Of a stretch of 64,000 nt of DNA, positions 2,396 through 27,034 are shown one piece after another. The position numbers and the translations under genes are program-made. Source of the DNA: an uncultured bacterium (lineage in GTDB: Bacteria > Patescibacteriota > Minisyncoccia > UBA6257 > GWB1-50-10); NCBI GenBank assembly GCA_963768835.1, contig CAVYJB010000001.1, positions 216,420 through 280,419 of the forward strand. Reading direction: 5' to 3'. Positions within the stretch are counted from its first letter, which is position 1. Every line of letters begins with the position of its first letter. The notes beneath the pieces were generated by a model that was not told where the DNA came from, ran no database searches, and was given only the letters and a program-made list of their open reading frames with translations.

Positions 2396-2950
2396 TTAGC
2401 ATCGCATGAAGATGCGCCCGCCGCGATGCCGCGCGGGAGGTCTATTACACTCAGCGCGCAGAATCCAGATTCCTCTTTTCTTGTACCAGCGTGCCATCAC
2501 GAAGGCCATGGTACCCACATTCTCGAGAACGTAAAAGACGTTGTACTCCCCCTCTACATGCAGGTCTCCTTTTCTCCCGTCCGATTGTTTCGAGAGCATC
2601 CCATATAAGATATTCAAAATCTGTGTTTGGGTGAAGAAATACTGATGGTCGTGGAACTTCGCCTGGATCTCGGCATCTGTCATGTCCCTTGTGTTTTCGT
2701 ATGCACTGACGAAATCGCTGTATGCGGGTATCATGACCGGAGCCTGCGGAACAATCTGGAAGGCAAACGAGTCTTCAGGGTGGACTTTTACCCCGAGCTC
2801 CGATAAAAGAAATTGTTCTTTCCGGAATTCTCTTGTCCCCACCTCGATGCGCGGCGCCAACAGTTTAAGATCAGCGTCGCCCATGAAGCTGGAGCGCGGT
2901 ATCTGTGCCTCAGTGCGTCCCATAAGTACGACCTCCTTGATTCTGGCCAC
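2396..2950 (-). CDS. hypothetical protein
   Basis: 184-aa ORF in AT-richer stretch; no motif recognised. Confidence 0.4.
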   Translation of the reverse strand: MARIKEVVLMGRTEAQIPRSSFMGDADLKLLAPRIEVGTREFRKEQFLLSELGVKVHPEDSFAFQIVPQAPVMIPAYSDFVSAYENTRDMTDAEIQAKFHDHQYFFTQTQILNILYGMLSKQSDGRKGDLHVEGEYNVFYVLENVGTMAFVMARWYKKRGIWILRAECNRPPARHRGGRIFMRC

Positions 2951-3140
2951 ACGCCGCTTCTTACTATTTTTCGGAAGGGGTGGGTGTGCCGTTATTAATT
3001 TGCCTGTTTTCTTATACCATAACTGAATATCAACGTCAATATGGTCAATATGTTTGACCCCACCCGCCTTCCGGCATACCCTGATACTAGCAACCTGCGA
3101 TACCTAACCAATCATCTATCACAATATAAGGAGCGCGGCC

Positions 3141-3626
3141 ATGAGCGCTGTCGCTGAAGCGCCTGTCATGCAGGAGAAACGAGCGGTCTTACCCTACAAG
3201 CCTCTCGTCTCCGGCAAACTGTGGAACCGGCTGGTCGGTCGAATTCAAAAGGACCACCCGGAGATAAAAAAGAACGAAGCGGAAGCCATCATGGATGCGG
3301 CGCTGGGTTTCCTGAAACTCTGCGCGAATCATCCGGAGAATCGGTTTGCGCCTTCGGAGAAGGTGGATATCGGATGGCATACTTTCCTGATGTACACGCG
3401 GGAATACCACGAGTTCTGCAGGGACCTTGGCGGGAACTACATCCACCACGTCCCGAACGACGATCCGAGGGTACCGCAGGAACGCGGAGCTCTGGGCAAG
3501 ACGGTCCGGTTCATGCGGACCAACGGTGTCACCTTCAGCCCTCGGCTCTGGTTTGGGAATGCCGACTGCACGGTGGACTGCAGGGATGACTGCTCGAATT
3601 GTTCACAGAATAGCTGCACCAAGTAA
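3141..3626 (+). CDS. hypothetical protein with Cys/Asp-rich C-terminus (DCTVDCRDDCSNCSQNSC)
   Basis: AGGAGC RBS 8 nt upstream; intact 161-aa ORF; C-terminal C-x-x-D motifs resemble the downstream precursor core. Confidence 0.55.
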   Translation: MSAVAEAPVMQEKRAVLPYKPLVSGKLWNRLVGRIQKDHPEIKKNEAEAIMDAALGFLKLCANHPENRFAPSEKVDIGWHTFLMYTREYHEFCRDLGGNYIHHVPNDDPRVPQERGALGKTVRFMRTNGVTFSPRLWFGNADCTVDCRDDCSNCSQNSCTK

Positions 3627-3713
3627 CGGGCATGTGTAGGAGATAAAACGAAGGGGCCGGTACCGAAAGGTTCGGCTCTTTATTTTTGTACGGGCAGACC
3701 CTATGATTGAGCC

Positions 3714-4292
3714 ATGCCGAACTCGTGGGATGAGACATTCTCCTCCGGACGGGAGTTCCCTCCCCTGAACCGCTTATTCCTGAAGAAGCTCCTTTCGGCT
3801 GTCAGCCCGAACCCGAAGACTGCGCTCGACCTGGGCTGCGGCACAGGGGACGATCTCGTCCTCCTCGCATCGGCGGGACTTGCAGTGAAGGGCGTGGATG
3901 GCTCGGCGGTGGCCATCAAGAAAGCTAAAACTAAGACGGCCGGCCGGGGCATCGAATTAATTGAGCATGACCTTGAAACCCTCACGGCGGCGGATTTGCA
4001 GAATCGGAACTTCGATATCGTCCTTTGCAAGCTCACTATCGCATTTATCACGGACCGCGAGCGGTTCCTTGGCCTCATGGCGGAGTTTCTCTCCCCCGCC
4101 GGCACCTTCGTACTCATCACGCCGGTGGTCTACGCCGGAGAAACGTACGCCGAGCCGCGGGTCAAGAAGATCTCGGTGGAGTTCAACGAGACTCTCTCGC
4201 TCCTGAAACGTCATTTCAAGACCGTCTCGGTCTTCCAGGAAGATTTCGCGGGAGCAGAGGAGGTGAAAATCGCCTTCTTGGCCCGCAACTAG
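3714..4292 (+). CDS. class I SAM-dependent methyltransferase
   Basis: LDLGCGTGDDLVLLA glycine-rich SAM-binding motif I. Confidence 0.8.
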   Translation: MPNSWDETFSSGREFPPLNRLFLKKLLSAVSPNPKTALDLGCGTGDDLVLLASAGLAVKGVDGSAVAIKKAKTKTAGRGIELIEHDLETLTAADLQNRNFDIVLCKLTIAFITDRERFLGLMAEFLSPAGTFVLITPVVYAGETYAEPRVKKISVEFNETLSLLKRHFKTVSVFQEDFAGAEEVKIAFLARN

Positions 4293-4403
4293 TATCACAA
4301 CAACAAGCTGTCGGACCGCGCGGTTTTTGATTTGACGCACTGCGGTGTTGTTGTATAGTCAGGCCAGCAGAATCCACACAATAAAACATGGAAGGGGTGC
4401 GCG

Positions 4404-4658
4404 GTGGAAACGAGCAAGAAGAAGAAACAGCCTTTTCTGGTCCGGTGGCTATCGAGGATTTGGAGTTGGCTCATAAAACCTTTCCCAATGGAGATCTCAG
4501 ATTCCAGAAAATCTGGGGAGGCGGAAGATCCAGAACTCGGGGGCTCCTACTACAGCCCGCTTAATGGCAGGGATTACAAAGAAAGAGGGCGACGTGAGAA
4601 TTTCGAGAATTACAGCGGCCCAGAAAGAGATTCTCCCGGCAGAGACGAGTTCTTCTAA
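4404..4658 (+). CDS. small hypothetical protein (GTG start, low complexity)
   Basis: 84-aa ORF, Lys/Arg/Glu-rich, weak signals. Confidence 0.25.
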   Translation: METSKKKKQPFLVRWLSRIWSWLIKPFPMEISDSRKSGEAEDPELGGSYYSPLNGRDYKERGRRENFENYSGPERDSPGRDEFF

Positions 4659-4794
4659 ACGGAGGTGTCGAGGAAAGACATGGGACGCACCGCACCAAGG
4701 ACATAACGGTGACAACACAAAAGGCCTGACGGGGTAATCCCATCAGGTCTTCCTTTTCATATCGTTTCTCTACCGATTTCGCAGCTATAGGGCC

Positions 4795-4824
4795 TTGACT
4801 TACGACAGCAATTATTGGTATATT
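4795..4824 (+). promoter_or_regulatory. sigma70-like promoter upstream of RiPP precursor gene
   Basis: TTGACT - 17 nt - tgGTATATT (extended -10) about 50 nt upstream of precursor ATG. Confidence 0.5.
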
Positions 4825-4872
4825 GTTCCTAGCAATGCACTTCACAAACGAAGAGAAAGGAGGCAAGCGGAG

Positions 4873-5139
4873 ATGAGCAAAAAAGGAAGCGTAGCGATTG
4901 AGAAATTGGACAGAATCGCTTCTCGTAGCGCTCGGCTTTCGGCACAGCACAGTGCTATCGGTAACGCATCGGGATGTCCGGTTGATGATTGCAGATCCGA
5001 CGGCGAGGGCTGCCAAGTCGATGTCGACCCAGGACAGTATCGTCCTGGTATTCCGTTCGCAGACAGCTGCGAATGTGAAGACGACGGCTGCTTCGGAGAC
5101 AAGGACAGCTGCGGAGAATCGGGATGTAGTTCTGTCTGA
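4873..5139 (+). CDS. RiPP precursor-like peptide, Cys/Asp-rich core with four C-x-x-D repeats
   Basis: AAAGGAGG RBS 9 nt upstream of ATG at 4873; 88 aa; leader-like N-terminus then CPVDDCRSDGEGCQVDVD...CECEDDGCFGDKDSCGESGCSSV; immediately upstream of a radical SAM/SPASM gene. Confidence 0.6.
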   Translation: MSKKGSVAIEKLDRIASRSARLSAQHSAIGNASGCPVDDCRSDGEGCQVDVDPGQYRPGIPFADSCECEDDGCFGDKDSCGESGCSSV

Positions 5140-5146
5140 AACTCAT

Positions 5147-5171
5147 GCGAGGGGGTAGTATACCCCCTCGC
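5147..5171 (+). promoter_or_regulatory. perfect 9-bp hairpin between precursor and radical SAM genes (attenuator/processing site candidate)
   Basis: gcgaggggg-tagtata-ccccctcgc directly after the precursor stop and before the RBS of the next gene. Confidence 0.5.
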
Positions 5172-5194
5172 TCATTACTATAGGAGGTGGGAAA

Positions 5195-6475
5195 ATGGTT
5201 TCTAAGAGATTTAAACTCTTCAAAATCCCGGAAGGTGGGGATACTGTTGTTTTTGTCCCTGCGCTCGCGAGAGTGTACAGAATTCCAGAGAAAATCGCTG
5301 CGGCGTTACCGAATTTTGTCACCGCAGAGATGGCTATTGCCGAGGATGCGGAATGGAAATCTCATGATCGAAATTTCACATCTGTCGTTCTGGCGCTGAC
5401 AAATAAATGCAATCTGCAGTGTGTTTACTGCTATGGCGATTTCGGACGCCCGAGAAACGGGACCGGGATAGTGATGGAATCAAGAATCGCAAGGGCTGCA
5501 ATCGACTACATCGTCGAGCAGGCTAGAGGAACAGACAGGAAGAGAGTTCATCTGGGCCTGTTTGGCGGCGAGCCCACACGCGCCTGGGAACTTCTCATCG
5601 AATCGGTGGGTTATCTCCGCTCTACAACACATCGCAACGGACTCCAGAGTACGGCCGGGATTATCACGAATGGCTTTATGAATTCCAAGATGGCCGGCTG
5701 GTTGGCGACCAATTTGGACGGCGTCACCATTTCTTTTGACGGCTATAAATCTATCCAAGATTCACAGAGAAGCGGCAGTTTCGAGAGAGTATTTGCTACC
5801 GCCAAAAAGATTTATGGCTTAAGTCCAAAGAAATTAACTTTCAGGGCCACGGTCACCGAATCAAGCGTGGGTTCATTGAGGGAAATAGTCGAGTTCTTCG
5901 GGATCAACTTCCCTGGATGTGTCCAAAGGTACGAGCCATTATTTCCGATGGGTAGAGGCGTAGGTTCCGGCACCGACGGGAAATCACTGCATTCAGTATT
6001 CTTCGATAAATTTCTGGAAGCAGTACCAACGGCGCGGAAATACGGTTCAAAGCTAAAGACGTCCGTATTGCGATTAAGGGGCGGAGAACACGATGTTTTT
6101 TGTGGTGCATCCGGCAGGAATTTTCTTGTGACTTACGATGGCAGCGTAGTGTCTTGCAATCGAATGATGGAAGCTAATATCAACGAGGCCTCCGATTTCT
6201 TCCACTATGGCCGCTTTGATAAGAAGTCGTGTAGCTTCATCTTCGATGAAGAAAAATACGCGAGACTCAAAATCCTGTCTCTGAAGACAGTTCCTGACTG
6301 CGAGAATTGCTTTGCACAATTCAGCTGCAAGGGAGATTGCCCAGCCAATAAGGCCGTAACCCTCCCCTCTTCTTTCTGGAAGGAAAAAAGTTATCGGTGT
6401 AGCGAAATACGTGATTTCCTACAGAAAGTCCTTTCTTATGTTCTAGATAATGGAACTGATGGGCTGTTCATCTGA
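5195..6475 (+). CDS. radical SAM/SPASM domain peptide-modifying enzyme
   Basis: CNLQCVYC (CxxxCxxC) cluster, GGEPT SAM motif, C-terminal SPASM-type CENCFAQFSCKGDCP; ~60-aa N-terminal extension (possible RRE). Confidence 0.9.
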   Translation: MVSKRFKLFKIPEGGDTVVFVPALARVYRIPEKIAAALPNFVTAEMAIAEDAEWKSHDRNFTSVVLALTNKCNLQCVYCYGDFGRPRNGTGIVMESRIARAAIDYIVEQARGTDRKRVHLGLFGGEPTRAWELLIESVGYLRSTTHRNGLQSTAGIITNGFMNSKMAGWLATNLDGVTISFDGYKSIQDSQRSGSFERVFATAKKIYGLSPKKLTFRATVTESSVGSLREIVEFFGINFPGCVQRYEPLFPMGRGVGSGTDGKSLHSVFFDKFLEAVPTARKYGSKLKTSVLRLRGGEHDVFCGASGRNFLVTYDGSVVSCNRMMEANINEASDFFHYGRFDKKSCSFIFDEEKYARLKILSLKTVPDCENCFAQFSCKGDCPANKAVTLPSSFWKEKSYRCSEIRDFLQKVLSYVLDNGTDGLFI

Positions 6476-6582
6476 ACAGCTCATTTTTTTATGCCATCAA
6501 GAGGACCGCGGGCGTAAGCCCGTGAAGTTTCATTTGTCAATTGATTTTTCTTATGGTTTAATAGGTACAGGTAGATACAAGG

Positions 6583-7836
6583 ATGCTGAGTTTTAAGAGG
6601 TTAGAAAATCGAGGTACGCCCATCTACTGGATGGGTATGAATTCCGCCGAATCGCTCGCCATCGGTATATTTGTCAACGCCGGGACACGCGATGAGCGGT
6701 GGCCTGAGGAGGCCGGGCTGGCTCATGCACTCGAGCACATGAATCTGCGAGGGACCAAGAAATTCCCTACAAGCGAATCCTTGAACAGCTATATTGAGGG
6801 AGTCGGGGGAAACAAGGGTGCGTGGACGGACAAGGAAGGGACTTTCTACTACGGCCGAGCTCCCTACCAATACCGAGAGAGACTGTTCGAGGTCCTTTTT
6901 GAGGCAGTTCAAAATCCCCTGCTTCTCGAGGAGCGTATCTCCGTAGAAAGGGGAAGTATCCTGAAGGAAATAAGAAGGAAGATCGATAATCCGCCTGAAA
7001 CGCTTTATGACCTTACGCTAGATTTCATATTCAAGGAACACCCGCTTTCGCGAAAGACACTGGGAACTGAGGAAGCGGTGGAAGGATTCCAGAGGAAGGA
7101 TTTCGTGAAATTCAGAGAGAAATTCTACAACTCGGCGAACTATGTTATTTTCTTCATCGGCAACGCAGGAGAGAACGAGGTAATAGAATTGGTGGAAAAA
7201 TACTTCAAGAATGAAAAGTTCTCCGGAAAGAACATACGAAAGGAAGTGGCCTGGAAACCGGGGAGTGAGCAGGCGCTCTATAAGCACCGGGATGTAAGCC
7301 AAGCCTATTTCTCTTTGGCAGCACCCTTCCGCGAGACACCGCGCGATTATAGCTCATTAAGGGCGCTGGATATGTTCTCAGTTATGATATCGGGCGGCAC
7401 CGCTTCTCCGCTGTTCCAAGAAATGAGAGAGAAGCGGGGGTTGTGCTATACAGTCCAATCCGGTGTCCGGCATTTCTCGGATCTGGGCTTCTTCTACATT
7501 CAAGCCGGTACAGATCCAAAGCAATACAGGGAAGCTATCGACACGGCACGCAATGTTATGGAGAGAAGCAAGAAGGATGATGCGTTGCTCCAGAGAACCA
7601 AGAAATACCGGCTCGGCCAGTTGCGGTTGGGCTACGAGAATACCGGTGATATCCTGGGCACCGCGGCGCACCAAATGCTTTCGTACGGAGAACCGAGGGA
7701 TTTCTTCAAGATAGAGAAAGAGATCAATGATTTTAAAATCAGCGACATCGAGAAAGTTGTAGATTCATACCTAAAACCCGATCTGATAAAGGAAGTTGCT
7801 ATATTCCCGAAGCAAAGCGAAGCCCCTTCGAACTGA
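6583..7836 (+). CDS. M16 family (pitrilysin/insulinase-like) zinc peptidase
   Basis: inverted zinc motif HALEHM (HxxEH) near the N-terminus, 417 aa. Confidence 0.85.
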   Translation: MLSFKRLENRGTPIYWMGMNSAESLAIGIFVNAGTRDERWPEEAGLAHALEHMNLRGTKKFPTSESLNSYIEGVGGNKGAWTDKEGTFYYGRAPYQYRERLFEVLFEAVQNPLLLEERISVERGSILKEIRRKIDNPPETLYDLTLDFIFKEHPLSRKTLGTEEAVEGFQRKDFVKFREKFYNSANYVIFFIGNAGENEVIELVEKYFKNEKFSGKNIRKEVAWKPGSEQALYKHRDVSQAYFSLAAPFRETPRDYSSLRALDMFSVMISGGTASPLFQEMREKRGLCYTVQSGVRHFSDLGFFYIQAGTDPKQYREAIDTARNVMERSKKDDALLQRTKKYRLGQLRLGYENTGDILGTAAHQMLSYGEPRDFFKIEKEINDFKISDIEKVVDSYLKPDLIKEVAIFPKQSEAPSN

Positions 7837-7857
7837 CCCGGGACAATCAAAAGAATA

Positions 7858-8526
7858 ATGGTTTATAAGTTGAGCCTGACAAAATCCAGCGACAGGTTTG
7901 TCGAAGGGGTCTTTTGTAAGTCCATGAAGGATCTCGGTAAATTTTATGCCATCCACTGGACAACAAATACACCCAAAATTGTCTTACTGAAAGACAGAAA
8001 AACAATTGACTTGTTGCGTGCGAGAAAAACTGAACCGTGGCTCGTCGGTTGGGCCAACGGAGAAATGCGGATTGTTTTCGTATTGGACAGAAGGAGTCTG
8101 GGGAAATACAGTTCCCACAAATACTCTAAGGAGCATTATTCCTCTTTGATCAAACACGAACTCAGCCACCTATTCTATAAAATACTCACCGGCGACAAAC
8201 GGGGCCCCGTATGGCTGTCCGAAGGCGTGGCAATTTATACCTCTGGCCAACATAAATCGAGAACAGTGCCTAGCGAATTCAAGAATTTCTTGACGTTTTA
8301 CAGTCATGGCGGTTCTGGAGTATACGCAGAATCGGGCTTCGTTGTTGAAATACTTGTTAGAAACTTTGGCAAGAATAAATTACTTAAACTTATAAAATCT
8401 TTGCGAAGCATATCCGATGAAAAGCAATTCAATAGGGTCTTTAAAAGAATTTATGGATTTCAGATTAGTTATAGAAGCATAAATAACTATTATACAAACA
8501 GCTCTCCTCCACGATTAAGAACATGA
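7858..8526 (+). CDS. HExxH zincin-like protein, paralog 1 (peptidase MA-like)
   Basis: HELSH followed by WLSEGVAIY (gluzincin third-ligand-like). Confidence 0.65.
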   Translation: MVYKLSLTKSSDRFVEGVFCKSMKDLGKFYAIHWTTNTPKIVLLKDRKTIDLLRARKTEPWLVGWANGEMRIVFVLDRRSLGKYSSHKYSKEHYSSLIKHELSHLFYKILTGDKRGPVWLSEGVAIYTSGQHKSRTVPSEFKNFLTFYSHGGSGVYAESGFVVEILVRNFGKNKLLKLIKSLRSISDEKQFNRVFKRIYGFQISYRSINNYYTNSSPPRLRT

Positions 8527-9215
8527 GGAAGCTCCGCTTCTATTTCAACAGAAATCTAGACAAGTTCATGGCTGCCCAGTTTCTCGACGAAAAAATGGGC
8601 GGCATTGATTTTGGGGTAAATATTGTTAAGCTCCATCCCCTACTAAGGTCCTCCAAAAAGGATCGGGGGGCGAGAAAGAAAACATTGGATAAATATTTCA
8701 AACAATACTACCGTAGCCATCGCCGTGAAATGTCTCAGAAGGCATCGAGGATAAAAGAGGCGTGGCGTGACGTCGAGGACGAGTTTGTGATCACGACGGA
8801 ACGTTTGTTAGGTGGATTCCGTTTCCCATCCGGCCGGTACATCGCATACCCCTCGATTGTGGACTGTAACCCCCGCTTTCTGGTATCAAAAACGTTCCAG
8901 TTCTACTATCGGAAGGTCCCCACGGATGCCGTGCACACCATTGCCCACGAGCTTCTGCACTTCATCTTCTTTGCATTCGTCAAATCGAGGTTGAAGAATG
9001 CCATCAAGAAACTTCCTGAGGAGAAGCTCTGGGACCTCTCGGAACTTTTCAACGTCATAATTCTTCAATCGCCGTCTTACCGGAAACTCATCAATCCGCA
9101 CTATGCCCATCCCTATCCAGACCACCAAAAGTACGTCTCTCGATTTGAGACCGCCTATCGAAAGTCCCGCGCCATAGAGGAATTCATCCGGAACGGGATC
9201 GCAATTATAAAATGA
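8523..9215 (+). CDS. HExxH zincin-like protein, paralog 2
   Basis: HELLH motif; ATGA start/stop overlap with upstream gene. Confidence 0.6.
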   Translation: MRKLRFYFNRNLDKFMAAQFLDEKMGGIDFGVNIVKLHPLLRSSKKDRGARKKTLDKYFKQYYRSHRREMSQKASRIKEAWRDVEDEFVITTERLLGGFRFPSGRYIAYPSIVDCNPRFLVSKTFQFYYRKVPTDAVHTIAHELLHFIFFAFVKSRLKNAIKKLPEEKLWDLSELFNVIILQSPSYRKLINPHYAHPYPDHQKYVSRFETAYRKSRAIEEFIRNGIAIIK

Positions 9216-10036
9216 AGCACAAGAAGAGCATCGGCAGCATGAAAACACCCAGACTCGAATATAGAAATTCCTATGAAGTGTTCGTTCTTTTCGCTGCCCT
9301 GAACGCGCTGGGGTACGACGATGAGAGCCGGATCAGCGGGATGTCCCTTCTCCGAAGGAGAACAAGAGGGTCCCTGCGCAGGCATGTTCGGAGCCAAAAA
9401 TACCCTCAGCTGAAGAGATTCTTTCATGCACACAGCCCGTGGCATCTTCTGATCTTCACGCTCCGCGGCAGTTCAATCCCGGCCCTCCGGAGTTTCTCTA
9501 AAGAACCAGCAGTGCGGGCGCTATGGAGGGAAGCGCGAACGCGCCAAGAGGCGGAGTTGGGAAAAATCTCCACGCTTTTCGCGCGTGAAACGGTGCGCCT
9601 TATTCGACTCGTCGGAAAACCGGTTCGCCCCATCGACCGAATTGTGCTTATCCCAAATCTCCTTGATGCGTACTGGCGCGGATACTGTCTCCGCGTGAGG
9701 CGGGTCTGCTACATCGTAGTAGGGCCAGGGGCCGAGAAGAACGGCGGCGAGCTTATCCGGCACGAACTCCTGCATCTCCTGGCCCCGAATATCCACCTCC
9801 CGCTCCCCGCTCACTCGCCCAAAATCCGTGCCCGCCTTTCGCGCCAGGGTTACTCTAACCAATCTATTATTAATCGTGAGTATGTCGTCCGCGGCCTAAA
9901 CCTTCTCTATGAGTCAGAGTTTTTGAGTAAGAATATCCGCGCATCAGTCGTACGAGAACGAAGAAATTTCCCCTATATTAGGAAGGTTATAAAATCTCTG
10001 AAAACAAAGATGGGGCTGGCATTTTCGAAATCATGA
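9212..10036 (+). CDS. HExxH zincin-like protein, paralog 3
   Basis: HELLH motif; translationally coupled. Confidence 0.6.
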   Translation: MKHKKSIGSMKTPRLEYRNSYEVFVLFAALNALGYDDESRISGMSLLRRRTRGSLRRHVRSQKYPQLKRFFHAHSPWHLLIFTLRGSSIPALRSFSKEPAVRALWREARTRQEAELGKISTLFARETVRLIRLVGKPVRPIDRIVLIPNLLDAYWRGYCLRVRRVCYIVVGPGAEKNGGELIRHELLHLLAPNIHLPLPAHSPKIRARLSRQGYSNQSIINREYVVRGLNLLYESEFLSKNIRASVVRERRNFPYIRKVIKSLKTKMGLAFSKS

Positions 10037-11040
10037 AACTCTTCATCCAAATCTCAAAATTACATAACTACTTCTTCTTTGTTTCGAACCTTGCCGAGTG
10101 GAGCCCCTATTGTCGAAAGCAATACAACGAAGTCTGGCTTCGCGGTAATCCTCTCACTGCACCAGAGCGGACAGCGCTTAAAAAGGTGGCTGGTGTCTTT
10201 AAGAAGCATGGGTTCTCGGATCGATTCGCCTCATCCGAATCTCCTGATGTGATATGGGACACCATCGCGAAAACTCTGAAACCGGATGAGTATGCGGCAC
10301 TTCGGAACGCTTTTGCTACGCTCACTCCGCGATTTGAGAAGGTATGGCGGCGCGAGAAGGGAAATCTAATGCGGGTGCAAAAGGAAATGAAGAAATCGCT
10401 CTCGCTCTCCAAAAGAGCTCTTGGTGTGTTAGAAACTCTTTACGGCGCTCCGTCAAAAAGTTTGACCCTCGAGATATTCCTCCTCACAAATCCCATCTCC
10501 AAGCGCCTAGTGGGAGGCGGAAGCGGCATCGGGGAAAACAAAATCGAGCTTGAGTGCTCAAGGGTGACGAAACACAACAACCCAAAAGGGTGGCTGGGCA
10601 GGGTTATACTCCATGAATTCGTCCATGTGGCGCTTGAGAAAGAACTCCGAGACAAGATCGGGGCCTTTGTAGGCAGCAAGGATTTCCGAAAGCGCCACGA
10701 ACCGTTTTTGAAGCACTCCGCTATCTATTGTGAGACTCGATCGTTCGTCGGACCTATCAAGGAGATGGTTGCTGTATCCCTTCTCCCCGAAGGATATCTA
10801 GCCGAGAAGATTTATGGCGCGCGCGTCGTCGAGAGCCTGAAACAGCGGAACGCGGTCCGGACCCACACCTTCCGGAAGGACTACTACGACCTGATGCTTT
10901 TCTCTCTGTGGGGGCTCTATGATATCGCCAAGGAGTACTCCGACCAGCGGAAGCCGATTGACAGGAGGTACATCGAAACCGTGGTGCGGAATTGGGAATC
11001 CTTCGAGAGCATGGATCTTTCGAGGTTTGACCCCGAATAA
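10033..11040 (+). CDS. HExxH zincin-like protein, paralog 4
   Basis: HEFVH motif; translationally coupled. Confidence 0.6.
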   Translation: MKLFIQISKLHNYFFFVSNLAEWSPYCRKQYNEVWLRGNPLTAPERTALKKVAGVFKKHGFSDRFASSESPDVIWDTIAKTLKPDEYAALRNAFATLTPRFEKVWRREKGNLMRVQKEMKKSLSLSKRALGVLETLYGAPSKSLTLEIFLLTNPISKRLVGGGSGIGENKIELECSRVTKHNNPKGWLGRVILHEFVHVALEKELRDKIGAFVGSKDFRKRHEPFLKHSAIYCETRSFVGPIKEMVAVSLLPEGYLAEKIYGARVVESLKQRNAVRTHTFRKDYYDLMLFSLWGLYDIAKEYSDQRKPIDRRYIETVVRNWESFESMDLSRFDPE

Positions 11041-11041
11041 A

Positions 11042-11077
11042 AGGCACGCGACATCTTTTCAGATAGCGCGTGCTTTG
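11042..11077. terminator. bidirectional terminator-like hairpin between convergent genes
   Basis: aaggcacgcg...cgcgtgcttt: 7-bp GC stem flanked by A-run and T-run. Confidence 0.4.
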
Positions 11078-11162
11078 GGGCCCAATGCTTGAGTGATATG
11101 CCCGAAAAGCGTTCTTTGATTCTCAATAAACTCTTTGACTAGCCGGCTTCTTTAGCGATTAG

Positions 11163-11930
11163 CTATTTCAGATACCCCCTTAATATCGGTTCATGAAGAA
11201 AGGAGTGCCCACTTCCACACACCACAAAGAGGCTCTTGCCTGTGCCCCACTCCTTCCTAAGCCGTTTCAGAATTTCCGCATCTCGAATATCGTCTGAGGT
11301 TCTCGTGATTTGATTCACAATGGTGTCCGCTCGATTCGGATTAACCATTCTATTGAAGAGGCGCAGGTTGTGAAGGCTGAAGGCCTTCCCCAACAGCCTT
11401 TTATGCACAGCTTTCATTTTCGGAAAGGTGAAATCTTTCCAACCGAATTGTCTGACATATATCGCCATGACCTCCGCCATCCATTTCTTAAAGTCCGGTC
11501 GAGGGTTATGACGTCCCCAGGTATCTACCAAGCCCGCAAACCAGTGATAATAGATCTCATCTTTTGAAAACTCCTTCTTAAGAGCGGCAGCGACTCTGTC
11601 GCGGGAAGGCTCGGGGCAAATGATCGGGATATTCGCATGGTGAGCCCAGAGCGTCACGACCGAACCTTCGGCCCCGCTTTCTATCGCCGCCTTTTCGTTA
11701 GCGTGAACCTTACGCAAGTTTCCCTCAATGACTACTAATTTCTTGGTACTCCGCGTTTTCAGGAACGTTTTCCAGAATTTCCGCAGAATGGAGTATTGCT
11801 TATCTTTCGGATCGTGGCTGTGATTCGCACCGAAATAGAAAAGGACTTGATTCCGTTTCTTGATCTCAAAGCAGTAGGGCACGGGCTTGCCTCTGCTTAG
11901 TTCTTCGTATTTCTCGCGATCAACTTTCAT
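11163..11930 (-). CDS. hypothetical protein (possible TraB/GumN-family-like)
   Basis: 255-aa intact ORF; LFYFGANHSHD resembles the TraB/GumN N-terminal motif; weak. Confidence 0.5.
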   Translation of the reverse strand: MKVDREKYEELSRGKPVPYCFEIKKRNQVLFYFGANHSHDPKDKQYSILRKFWKTFLKTRSTKKLVVIEGNLRKVHANEKAAIESGAEGSVVTLWAHHANIPIICPEPSRDRVAAALKKEFSKDEIYYHWFAGLVDTWGRHNPRPDFKKWMAEVMAIYVRQFGWKDFTFPKMKAVHKRLLGKAFSLHNLRLFNRMVNPNRADTIVNQITRTSDDIRDAEILKRLRKEWGTGKSLFVVCGSGHSFLHEPILRGYLK

Positions 11931-16241: not shown

Positions 16242-17897
16242 ATGAAGAAATTAATTGTTTTAGTGCTCGGCATCGTTATGCTTGGCACAATCGGTGGGCG
16301 TGCGGGTCAGAAAACCGCTACGACGCTCGCAAACGGCGCTACGGTCTTGAATGTGGATGGGCGAATCCTTTCGTCCAACCCCGTGCTTGACCCGAACTAC
16401 AGAAATATTCTCGACCCTGCGTCAAACCTAGCGAAGTCCTCTGGGTTCACGGAAATTCCACAGAACATAACCCAGGTATGGACGGATTCGTTCACACTCG
16501 GAGGGACACAGGATGTTCCGCTTTTTGTGAAAGTGGACGGGCTCGGGAACTCGTATGTCAACGGGTGGCGATCGGTTTATCCTGCCCCTTATGACTACGC
16601 GCGTGCGGTACTCCGGAAGTTCTCGCCTTCAGGTGTCCCTCTCTGGTCCATACAGACCATGCAGGACACTACCGCCTCCGGCTGGAACCAGATAACCACG
16701 CTCTCCGACAATTCTGTTGTGTGGGCATGGTCCGGGTTCATCAACATCGACAGTACGCACATCGAGAAGCTTTCCCCGACCGACGGTTCGCTCATCTGGC
16801 AGACCGCTATCCGTGGAGACGTCCTCTTGGGTTCATACGGGAATACAGTCATCGCGGTGCAATGCAGCTACACGAGCGGCAGAATCTTCCTGCTCGACTC
16901 TACGGGAACGATCTTCCGAAGTTTCCCGACGAGCAATGATTCGGCAGGCTCCGCAGTGACGGGGAATGTCACAACTCGCGTCTGGAACGGAAGGCTCTAC
17001 TTGTTTGCTGGGCGTCCAGGCGGGGTCGCGATTTCTCTTTCCTCGTATGCGGCCTGCTATGACCTCGCGTCAGGCTCGTTTCTCTGGAGACAGGATTTCG
17101 TGGACCTCGAGCGGCTCTTCGGCGACGTCGACATCGATGGTAACGTCTATGCCGGAGGCAGCTTATGGACCGACGATTTCCCGCAGTTCGGCAATATGCG
17201 CTTCGTCATGAAGAAGTTCTCTCCGGACGGAGCACCGCTCTGGGCAACAGGATGGTTTCCGAAGTCCAATCCGGACGGCAACTGGGAAAACTGGGGGAAC
17301 GGAATCGCCGTTTCCCACCAGAGCTCTCCGGGGCAACGGGTCGTCGTTCTGCTCGGAATCACCGAACGGGATACAGTGGACACGGGAGCTCGCCTGAACT
17401 ACGTTCTAGGACGAAAGGCTTCAACCGGCGATTCACTCTTCGTCATGACCTGGGAGTATGGCACGGATGCGATCGTGAACGGGGTGAACGGTGGTCAGTT
17501 CGATTCAGACAATGACCTTATCGTTCTCGGACAAGAGTACCGAGGCTCTGGGCCTGTTTGGGGATACGGACATCTGCATAAGTTCGAAGGAATTGTTGCT
17601 TCTGTAGAGGTGTTGCCGGGTCTCGTGCCAACCAGTTTCATCCTCCATCAGAACTACCCCAACCCCTTCAACCCTTCGACCGTCATCCGGTTCGAGGTGA
17701 AGAAGGAAGTTCCTGTCTCACTGTTCATTTACAGTGTCACGGGAGCGAGGGTGGCGACTCTTCTGGAGAACGAGCGGAAGGCTTCGGGAGTCTATGAAGT
17801 CTCCTGGAACGCTTCGCAGTTCGCTTCGGGGATCTACTTCTATCGCCTTATCGCTGGATCGTTTGTTGAGACGAAGAAGATGGTGTTCCTGAAGTGA
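16242..17897 (+). CDS. secreted protein with T9SS-type C-terminal sorting domain
   Basis: signal peptide; C-terminal ~80 aa (NYPNPFNPSTVIRFEV...GIYFYRLIAGSFVETKKMVFLK) match the Por/T9SS CTD pattern; GGGTG RBS. Confidence 0.85.
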   Translation: MKKLIVLVLGIVMLGTIGGRAGQKTATTLANGATVLNVDGRILSSNPVLDPNYRNILDPASNLAKSSGFTEIPQNITQVWTDSFTLGGTQDVPLFVKVDGLGNSYVNGWRSVYPAPYDYARAVLRKFSPSGVPLWSIQTMQDTTASGWNQITTLSDNSVVWAWSGFINIDSTHIEKLSPTDGSLIWQTAIRGDVLLGSYGNTVIAVQCSYTSGRIFLLDSTGTIFRSFPTSNDSAGSAVTGNVTTRVWNGRLYLFAGRPGGVAISLSSYAACYDLASGSFLWRQDFVDLERLFGDVDIDGNVYAGGSLWTDDFPQFGNMRFVMKKFSPDGAPLWATGWFPKSNPDGNWENWGNGIAVSHQSSPGQRVVVLLGITERDTVDTGARLNYVLGRKASTGDSLFVMTWEYGTDAIVNGVNGGQFDSDNDLIVLGQEYRGSGPVWGYGHLHKFEGIVASVEVLPGLVPTSFILHQNYPNPFNPSTVIRFEVKKEVPVSLFIYSVTGARVATLLENERKASGVYEVSWNASQFASGIYFYRLIAGSFVETKKMVFLK

Positions 17898-25987: not shown

Positions 25988-27028
25988 ATGATGAGACCAA
26001 TGACGACACCTCGTCACATCCTCGTGACCGGCGGCGGCGGATTCCTGGGGTCAGTGCTTGTCCCTCTTCTCCTCGACCACGGGTACCACGTGACTGTCCT
26101 TGACCGTTTCTTCTTCGGGCGTGGCACGCTTGCCGCGTGCTCCTCGAACCCCCGCTGCAAGCTTGTCGAAGCCGACACGCGCACCGCGCCGGAGACCCTC
26201 TTCCAGGGCATCGATTCCGTCGTCGACCTTGCGGCGCTCTCGAACGACCCCTTGAGCGAGCTCAAACCCGAAACGACCCTCGACATCAACTTCCACGCCC
26301 GGGTGCGCACCGCGACGCTCGCGAAAAGGCACGGAGTGGGACGGTACGTGCTTGCCTCGACCTGCAGCGTCTACGGGTTCCAAAACGGCGTTCTCACAGA
26401 GACCGCCGTTTTGAATCCGCTCACGACCTACGCGCGCGCGGCCGCGCGCGCCGAGGAACGCACCCTCGCGCTCTCCGACGGAACCTTTGCGGTGACCGCC
26501 CTGCGGCAGGGAACGCTCTATGGCCTTTCGCCGCGAATGCGCTTCGACATCGTGGTGAATACCCTCACGCTGTCGCTCTTCCGCGACGGGAAACTCCACC
26601 TCAACGGGGGCGACCAGTGGCGTCCCCTCCTCCATGTGGGAGACTCCGCCCGCGCGTTCCTTGCCGTGCTGGAGGCGCCCCCCGCGGCCGTCGGAGGCCA
26701 GGTCTTCAACGTCGGTGCAACAGCCCAGAACTTCCAGCTGAACCACCTCGCCACGCTCATCGTACGCACCCTCGATATCCCGCCAAGGATAGAGACGACG
26801 GAGGCGTACGACCATCGTTCGTACCGAACCTCCTCCGCGAAAATAGAGCGGACCCTCGGCTTCATGACGCAGAAAACGCCGGAGCACGGCGCGCGGGAGG
26901 TGTACGGGGCGCTCCGCACGGGAAGCGTCACTGCAGAAAAAAGCACCATCACGCTTGAGTGGTACAAGCATCTCCTCTCAGGCGACCCGGGGATTCTCGA
27001 TCCCCGCGATATCTCCCACACCGCATAA
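25988..27028 (+). CDS. NAD-dependent epimerase/dehydratase (SDR family)
   Basis: ILVTGGGGFLGSVLV Rossmann motif. Confidence 0.85.
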   Translation: MMRPMTTPRHILVTGGGGFLGSVLVPLLLDHGYHVTVLDRFFFGRGTLAACSSNPRCKLVEADTRTAPETLFQGIDSVVDLAALSNDPLSELKPETTLDINFHARVRTATLAKRHGVGRYVLASTCSVYGFQNGVLTETAVLNPLTTYARAAARAEERTLALSDGTFAVTALRQGTLYGLSPRMRFDIVVNTLTLSLFRDGKLHLNGGDQWRPLLHVGDSARAFLAVLEAPPAAVGGQVFNVGATAQNFQLNHLATLIVRTLDIPPRIETTEAYDHRSYRTSSAKIERTLGFMTQKTPEHGAREVYGALRTGSVTAEKSTITLEWYKHLLSGDPGILDPRDISHTA

Positions 27029-27034
27029 CGGCCT

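Follow-up and report, generated by a model that had tools for sequence, protein, structure and literature searches.

We analysed a 64-kb window of a 353-kb contig (CAVYJB010000001.1) from an uncultured bacterium of the candidate phyla radiation (CPR), and statements on the window cover these 64 kb. Seven successive genes on the + strand between 4.8 and 11.0 kb encode a small Cys/Asp-rich peptide, a radical S-adenosylmethionine (rSAM)/SPASM enzyme, an M16 zinc peptidase and four proteins, hereafter H1 to H4, that each carry an HExxH motif. An earlier note, made from the letters of this DNA, had described a ribosomal-peptide maturation locus with an atypically large peptidase complement. Every feature that it claimed was found where it had been placed, the reading as a maturation locus is supported, and the size of the peptidase complement is borne out. 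Comparison with related loci shows that H4, and not the M16 peptidase or H1 to H3, is the conserved partner of this maturase.

The precursor gene (4873–5139, +) starts with ATG, has a GGAGG ribosome-binding site (RBS) 8 nt 5' of it and encodes 88 amino acids (aa) with a Cys/Asp-rich C-terminal half, confirming the short peptide with strong RBS that had been noticed ahead of the rSAM gene. A start at 4795 yields a TTG-extended version of the same open reading frame (ORF), coincident with a −35-like box. The leader contains VAIEKLDRI, the counterpart of (S/T)LEELExL in orthologs, and the Cys/Asp-rich core ends ...SCECEDDGCFGDKDSCGESGCSSV; an additional insertion of ~40 aa with three further Cys is missing from the orthologs. 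Eight distinct loci that bear a relative of the maturase were retrieved (L001/2, L003/4, L005/6, L087/8, L089, L090/1, L007 from Berkelbacteria and L008 from Patescibacteria). A homologous small ORF with an (S/T)LEELExL leader and a Cys/Asp core lies beside the maturase in all eight (L001, L004, L005, L087, L089, L090, L007 and L008), so that the precursor is conserved next to the rSAM gene in every related locus examined. Its placement varies: mostly it stands upstream of the maturase gene, in L087 after the M16 gene, in L003/4 after the convergent partner gene and in L008 between maturase and partner. The core of the nearest relatives reads ...C[DE]xDGC[FW]GDxDSCGE; across loci, cores hold 4 to 16 Cys and are also widely variable in length. 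Nearly all core Cys have an Asp or Glu 0–3 residues downstream, with CX0-2D/E as the dominant spacings. PapB joins the Cys sulfur to Asp C-beta or Glu C-gamma and accepts spacings of 0–6 (PMC9413430). The Cys-then-Asp/Glu pattern is the substrate arrangement of PapB and therefore fits a ranthipeptide-type cross-link; by this analogy, the bond made at the locus would be a thioether from a Cys sulfur to a non-alpha carbon.

The next gene (5195–6475, +) encodes a 426-aa protein with the CxxxCxxC motif (C72/C76/C79) and seven SPASM Cys (C303, C321, C369, C372, C378, C382 and C402), the number for two auxiliary clusters. All ten Cys are invariant in an alignment with 24 homologs, confirming both Cys motifs that had been read from the sequence. 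In the hidden Markov model (HMM) check that had been proposed for this enzyme, Pfam Radical_SAM (PF04055) passes (3e-9, 37.7 bits against a cut-off of 29.5), and SPASM stays slightly under its cut-off (20.5 against 21.5 bits); the latter region aligns to the SPASM domains of CteB and anSME. NCBIfam ranks PapB first, then the nif11-peptide, SCIFF, QhpD and CcpM maturases (E 1e-33 to 1e-22). The closest solved relative by family profile is CteB (5WGG, the SCIFF ranthipeptide maturase; E 9e-42), followed by anSME, the radical SAM domain of ChlB and SkfB. The stretch ahead of the rSAM core, only about 60 residues long and ~37 shorter than that of CteB, is conserved within the family, and no PqqD or RiPP recognition element (RRE) match was found in the maturase with Pfam or NCBIfam (RiPP, a peptide made by ribosomes and modified after translation). 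The family is small, with 31 clusters at E <1e-10 among 5.8 billion proteins and Candidatus Paceibacterota as the sole taxon given, and when one genome of each species was scanned, no close relative turned up, the best being a Berkelbacteria protein of 36% identity. Judged by motifs, profiles and alignments, the assignment as a radical SAM/SPASM RiPP maturase holds.

Downstream of the maturase lie the M16 (pitrilysin-type) zinc peptidase gene (417 aa, 6583–7836, +) and the genes of H1 (222 aa, 7858–8526, +), H2 (230 aa, 8523–9215, +), H3 (274 aa, 9212–10036, +) and H4 (335 aa, 10033–11040, +). H1 starts 21 nt past the M16 stop codon, and 4-nt overlaps join H1/H2, H2/H3 and H3/H4; H1 to H4 are thus translationally coupled behind M16 in one operon, confirming the coupling claimed earlier. 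An intrinsic-terminator-like hairpin (6458–6493, +; 12-bp stem followed by T7, −17.7 kcal/mol) overlaps the maturase stop codon. Precursor with maturase and M16-H1-H2-H3-H4 are therefore probably two separate transcription units, as predicted from this hairpin, and such a layout matches the convergent, separate transcription of the partner gene in other loci. Ahead of the precursor, a sigma-70-like promoter (4795–4824, +; TTGACT, 18-nt spacer, TG-TATATT) has 10 of 12 consensus matches and an extended −10 TG, to be taken as a consensus match only, CPR promoters being uncalibrated. A GC-rich stem-loop in the precursor-maturase gap (5147–5171, +; 11-bp stem, −22.3 kcal/mol, without T-run) may act as an mRNA stabiliser or attenuator. 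A further hairpin (11041–11076, −19.5 kcal/mol), between H4 and a convergent gene at 11163–11930 (−), is the likely end of the operon.

The M16 peptidase is confirmed as such, with both domains above the Pfam cut-offs (Peptidase_M16, PF00675, 4.5e-23, 82 bits; M16_C, PF05193, 1.5e-32, 113 bits) and an intact active site (HALEH at residues 48–52, ERGSILKE downstream). H1 to H4 carry one HExxH each: HELSH at 100, HELLH at 142, HELLH at 184 and HEFVH at 194, respectively. In shuffled versions of these proteins the motif occurs in ~1% each, giving a chance of ~2e-8 for four running. H1 is a predicted gluzincin of the Peptidase_MA_2 family (PF13485, 40.2 bits against a cut-off of 32.4), the family against which a check had been suggested; its HELSH is followed 17 residues on by the Glu of WLSEGV, the downstream EG that had been pointed out. 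H2, H3 and H4 match no Pfam or NCBIfam family, and the H3 and H4 family profiles found no PDB relative. The H4 family is unannotated and comprises 524 representatives at 50% clustering, in which H194 and E195 are conserved at 99%, H198 and E244 at 100%, E174 at 93%, Y302 at 92% and D310 at 90%. H184, E185, H188 and E223 of H3 are invariant among its relatives, which share a conserved Tyr pair, and some H3-family members touch DUF4932 (best E 4e-11).

AlphaFold (AF2) models of both proteins are confident, with a mean predicted local distance difference test score (pLDDT) of 89.8 and a predicted template modelling score (pTM) of 0.86 for H4, and a pLDDT of 90.2 for H3. Foldseek gave no significant match for the H4 model; the best structural matches of the H4 and H3 models are M1 aminopeptidase catalytic domains, and ChlH, an HExxH protein of triceptide clusters, ranks below peptidases. 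H3 and H4 share their order of elements: the N-terminal strand and helices are followed by a single long helix, then by a sheet of three strands and finally by the HExxH helix. Both models show the zincin fold, in which HExxH lies on the active-site helix and the third-ligand Glu on a helix further on, as in gluzincins of clan MA(E). Across the H4 and H3 families, HExxH is 99–100% conserved, with an invariant Glu 35–46 residues downstream and a conserved Tyr. The HExxH proteins seem cytoplasmic: no signal peptide is evident, and the confident models show an N-terminus folded into strand and helix.

The four HExxH genes had been called paralogs, a description that the comparisons do not support. 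Recent paralogy of H1 to H4 was rejected, since BLASTP detected no similarity among them (best E 0.04) and single-sequence hhalign likewise found none. Profiles tie H3 to H4 (Prob 78%, E 1.8e-5, 172 columns in register). With hhalign, H2 aligns to the broad H4 family over 139 columns that take in HExxH and the invariant Glu (E 3.6e-6, Prob 87.5%). Identities at this profile level are ~9–16%, and the link from H1 to H4 is marginal (Prob 55%). By these links H2, H3 and H4 are remote members of one zincin-like superfamily, not recent tandem duplicates.

In the eight related loci, searched by tblastn with all window proteins, a relative of H4 directly adjoins the maturase in seven, usually in convergent orientation, with L087 as the exception. 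M16 relatives follow the maturase in two of the eight (L087/8, 51% identity; L090, 32%), an H2 relative (49% identity) occurs in L087 only, where it is convergent with a second, different rSAM gene having its own Cys-rich peptide, and relatives of H1 and H3 were found in none. M16 is present in only some genomes, and the minimal cassettes hold neither another protease nor a transporter. A search seeded with H4 gave three loci, all of which adjoin rSAM/SPASM genes; in one (L092) only a SPASM-domain fragment adjoins H4, with a second rSAM gene ~1 kb off. The closest H4 relatives, 42–48% identical, are convergent with a different rSAM/SPASM gene whose product is 22% identical to the window maturase, and the precursor beside them is Cys-free (...YGYDDEHDQEHHDDWTWNDH). 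Relatives of H3 (n = 49; all those with a named source belong to Patescibacteria lineages) are convergent, in three of three contexts, with an rSAM gene of 440–478 aa, 31% identical to the window maturase. A conserved peptide, ...ERRIVYLKDH..CxxITCPGxCxCASK, lies in the gap between this rSAM and the H3-like gene and is probably the 60-aa precursor of the H3-type cassette.

As a control, we inspected the 80 rSAM/SPASM loci of the one-genome-per-species scan, which are more distant and belong nearly all to other phyla; most of them were used only as a background set. HExxH ORFs are no denser there than expected from background, with 5 in 227 kb close to the maturase vs 32 in 1025 kb farther off, and no partner-like HExxH protein was seen except in L007. 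Adjacency in 7/8, 3/3 and 3/3 loci together with this background rate therefore suggests that the rSAM-HExxH pairing is recurrent in these CPR cassettes, where it appears across several maturase clades and precursor types. In the co-occurrence check that had been proposed for the four HExxH genes, rSAM neighbours were seen for H4, H3 and, through L087, H2, and for H1 none on the single 1.4-kb contig that gave context. In related bacteria, members of the H2 and H3 families accompany other rSAM cassettes, whose precursors differ and are of the CNCTACGSCRCTPCK type for H2 and the CxxITCPGxCxCASK type for H3. No member of the H4 family was found in a scan of viral contigs, and a metagenome scan with H1 returned one 1.4-kb contig without useful context.

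Several of the related loci show additional features. The closest maturase ortholog (~59% identity), at 6238–7522 of L087 and also in L088, is split by a frameshift near 6594, so that it is a pseudogene or was misassembled. Of the L087 contig 17.5 kb were retrieved, which form a dense RiPP island with at least four rSAM genes, a methyltransferase gene and several Cys-rich small ORFs. In L090, a 534-aa protein encoded between M16 and the H4-like gene (9595–11199) has as its sole match a weak one to the Mom family (E 0.009, under the cut-off). The precursors beside the short rSAM/SPASM genes and closest H4 relatives of L093 (2389–2571, −) and L094 (2885–3058, −) are Cys-free and rich in His, Asp and Trp (...YDDEHDQEHHDDWTWNDH); they look like cyclophane (triceptide-type) rather than thioether substrates. 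In the H3-type loci, the conserved 60-aa peptide was uncalled and lies directly downstream of the rSAM gene (L096 8849–9031, L097 8898–9083, L098 8907–9089, all −). L096 also carries, at 2399–4707, a 449-aa rSAM gene followed by the gene of a 241-aa HEIMH protein without family match, near an MvdD-type ATP-grasp gene and a 47-aa peptide.

We lean towards reading the locus as a ranthipeptide-like RiPP cassette of a Patescibacteria-type bacterium in which the HExxH partner serves as processing (leader) peptidase. The 88-aa precursor would be bound via its conserved leader helix, and the SPASM rSAM enzyme would cross-link the Cys/Asp-rich core, likeliest through thioethers from Cys-S to Asp/Glu side-chain carbons as made by PapB. 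H4, a putative cytoplasmic gluzincin-like metalloprotein, would then cut off the leader or trim the peptide, with M16 assisting. H2 and H3, from families serving other rSAM cassettes, would have been gathered with H1 and H4 in one coupled operon behind M16. The hydrolytic role of the HExxH proteins and the peptide target of each are what we infer from the gluzincin constellation, from peptidases being the nearest structures and from the lack of any other protease in the minimal cassettes, which together make a leader peptidase the most economical assignment. The extra partners could be pooled peptidases for cassettes located elsewhere, provide broader processing of the long two-module precursor, or be orphan immunity-type proteases. 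Several observations weigh against this reading. The maturase scores far under the NCBIfam equivalog cut-offs (PapB 115/340 bits, SCIFF 93/425, nif11 105/519). No transporter is linked to the locus. The partner gene is convergent and hence separately transcribed in most loci, which suits immunity as well as processing. H1, finally, has no contextual support, its sole relative with context (L099, 45% identity, on a 1.4-kb contig) having no rSAM neighbour, so that its membership of the system is uncertain.

A broader proposal, which we put forward only tentatively, is that H2, H3 and H4 represent an undescribed zincin-like superfamily that is widespread in Patescibacteria and forms the standard third part of minimal precursor + rSAM + HExxH cassettes of several maturase clades and precursor chemistries, being either a new class of RiPP leader peptidases or a new tailoring or immunity enzyme; three of its families would here be pooled with M16 and the MA_2 protein in one operon for processing or immunity with multiple specificities.

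Patescibacteria generally live by anaerobic fermentation and have an incomplete tricarboxylic acid (TCA) cycle, a background that bears on the best-surviving alternative to a leader peptidase, namely an oxidative tailoring role of the HExxH partners. In that case these would belong to the Fe(II)/alpha-ketoglutarate (alpha-KG) HExxH hydroxylases or oxidative cleavers like ChlH, PflC and PesO, acting on Asp or other core residues. An rSAM/SPASM gene with an HExxH partner is the cluster architecture of triceptides (ChlBH/Fxs-type), and some HExxH proteins of RiPP clusters are zincin-like-fold Fe/alpha-KG hydroxylases, at least one of which also hydrolyses peptide bonds (PMC12636437, PMC13060819). 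The cores are rich in Asp, a residue known to serve as substrate, and the H4 relatives of highest identity adjoin a Cys-free precursor (...HDQEHHDDWTWNDH) that is triceptide-like in look. We nevertheless consider this rather unlikely. The alpha-KG-HExxH model (TIGR04267/IPR026337, assumed to be present in the NCBIfam set) matched none of H1 to H4 (E ≤0.1) and none of 16 H4-family members at E values up to 10, peptidases rank structurally above ChlH, and both families have the invariant gluzincin-type Glu, together with a 92% conserved Tyr in H4 and a conserved Tyr pair in H3. As a softer argument, the anaerobic lifestyle and incomplete TCA cycle make an O2- and alpha-KG-dependent enzyme beside an O2-labile rSAM enzyme less likely in this lineage.

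It is improbable, in our judgement, that the HExxH proteins instead serve self-protection or counter-defence as proteases that degrade mature peptides, with the H1-H4 array being orphan immunity genes against the peptides of neighbours. Convergent partner genes, and the terminator-like hairpin that parts the operon from the biosynthetic genes, would fit separately transcribed immunity functions, as would the finding that the kinds of precursor and rSAM enzyme cognate to the H2 and H3 families do not occur in the window. However, matching cassettes may sit elsewhere on the contig, the proteins appear cytoplasmic, and the minimal three-gene cassettes would be left without a leader peptidase. We give still less credence to a pathway for a small cofactor-like molecule, comparable to pyrroloquinoline quinone (PQQ) or mycofactocin, in which the maturase links a short motif and the peptidases digest the remainder. 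A SPASM rSAM enzyme with M16 and several more metallopeptidases but no transporter, the tight conservation of DGC[FW]GDxDSCGE, the M1-like (exopeptidase-type) structural neighbours and the conserved E174 on the strand before the HExxH helix would agree with it, but in most cassettes M16 is missing and the HExxH protein is a single one, conservation does not extend to further tailoring genes for small molecules, and the variation of the cores in length and Cys number is typical of peptide-type products. That M16-H1-H2-H3-H4 is a general protein-turnover operon beside a two-gene RiPP cassette by chance is least plausible of all: it would accommodate the hairpin after the maturase, the sole H1 homolog with context standing apart from rSAM genes and the absence of M16 from most related loci, but the H4, H3 and H2 families each lie beside rSAM genes in independent genomes, two other loci also have M16 after the maturase ortholog, and rSAM adjacency in 7/8, 3/3 and 3/3 cases rules out a chance neighbourhood as explanation.

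With respect to composition, the AT-richness that the earlier note had seen is real and modest, with a GC content of 0.488 in the cluster vs 0.551 in the remaining window, the 17th lowest among 116 windows of equal size. Horizontal acquisition, which had been proposed on these grounds, was rejected as weakly founded, the dip being modest and not unique in the window. H1 is the cluster gene of lowest GC (0.405 vs a window mean of 0.545) and has no Shine-Dalgarno sequence; it may for these reasons be the latest gene added to the peptidase operon. Among the ORFs of 200 aa or more in the window, a single one has CxxxCxxC, and only two ORFs end in Cys/acid-rich tails; searches of the remaining window for another radical SAM gene and for precursors like those of the H2 and H3 cassettes gave nothing above noise. 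The other such tail (NADCTVDCRDDCSNCSQNSCTK) belongs to a 161-aa ORF with a good RBS at 3141–3626 (+), 1.2 kb upstream of the precursor and separated from it by a SAM methyltransferase gene (3714–4292). This ORF could encode another, long-leader substrate; Pfam, NCBIfam and PDB gave no match for it, and the related loci have no homolog. The gene convergent with H4 (11163–11930, −) encodes a 255-aa protein without Pfam, NCBIfam or PDB match, in which FGANHSH...GSGH, spotted by eye, recalls TraB/Tiki-type metalloproteases; a homolog of 35% identity lies at 16455–17210 of L087, ~9 kb from the orthologous maturase. Rfam reported a 96-nt tRNA match at 2042–2137 (−) that ARAGORN did not call, and ARAGORN a tRNA-Leu at 26943–27032 (−) that is missing from the Rfam gathering list; an intron or long variable arm may be present in one of the two.

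Collectively, the data define a recurrent three-gene module whose third member is a zincin-fold family of hundreds of clusters with no Pfam, NCBIfam or PDB relative. Although rSAM RiPPs are well known, leader removal in minimal cassettes without a transporter-protease is often unclear, and peptide natural products of the uncultured, ultra-small Patescibacteria are almost unstudied; our literature search found no description of a CPR module of rSAM and HExxH genes. Because HExxH proteins of RiPP pathways can be either peptidases or iron oxygenases, the new and structurally distinct partner family is a direct and cheap target for heterologous reconstitution, from which the RiPP toolbox could gain a leader peptidase or a tailoring activity.

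Among known systems, PapA/PapB (freyrasin, Paenibacillus polymyxa) resembles the locus in its SPASM rSAM maturase, PapB being the top NCBIfam match, and in core Cys closely followed by Asp or Glu (PMC9413430). It differs in that the window maturase reaches 115 of 340 bits with ~24% identity to a Paenibacillus homolog, and in that the window has another leader, CX0-2D/E rather than CX3D spacing, a conserved HExxH partner, no ABC transporter and a CPR host lineage. CteA/CteB (SCIFF, thermocellin; 5WGG) shares the rSAM core and twin-cluster SPASM domain, which align at E 9e-42, whereas the N-terminus of the window maturase is ~37 residues shorter than the RRE-containing one of CteB, its score is 93 vs 425 bits, and the precursor is not SCIFF-like. 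Class III lanthipeptides lose their leaders to AplP-type peptidases of the M1 family, zinc gluzincins with an M1-like catalytic domain. In structure, the H4 and H3 models match M1 catalytic domains best, but H3 and H4 are single-domain proteins of 270–335 aa without GxMEN and without the M1 N- and C-terminal domains, and no relationship at the level of sequence was found.

Subtilosin, with AlbA and AlbE/F, and PQQ, with PqqE and PqqF/G, are rSAM/SPASM pathways that use M16 peptidases, and the pes cluster encodes two of them, PesP1/P2 (PMC13060819). The window likewise has an M16 gene directly after the SPASM maturase, with a weak PqqF match in NCBIfam (6e-11), but a single one of 417 aa, neither a pair nor a long PqqF, and M16 recurs in two of the eight related loci. 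The alpha-KG-HExxH enzymes that accompany rSAM/SPASM maturases or are fused to them (ChlBH/Fxs triceptides, PflC, PesO) are alike in placing an HExxH protein of zincin-like fold beside the maturase; the window's partner family differs from them in having no HMM match, in lying nearer to peptidase domains, in its invariant gluzincin Glu and conserved Tyr, and in an N-terminal helical domain with an NxFFFxSNL motif specific to it. Apart from its HExxH partners, the locus is thus an ordinary member of the thioether-type rSAM RiPPs: a SPASM rSAM maturase with a Cys/Asp precursor is of a known general kind, and what sets it apart is the recurrent zincin-fold partner family and the five-peptidase operon.

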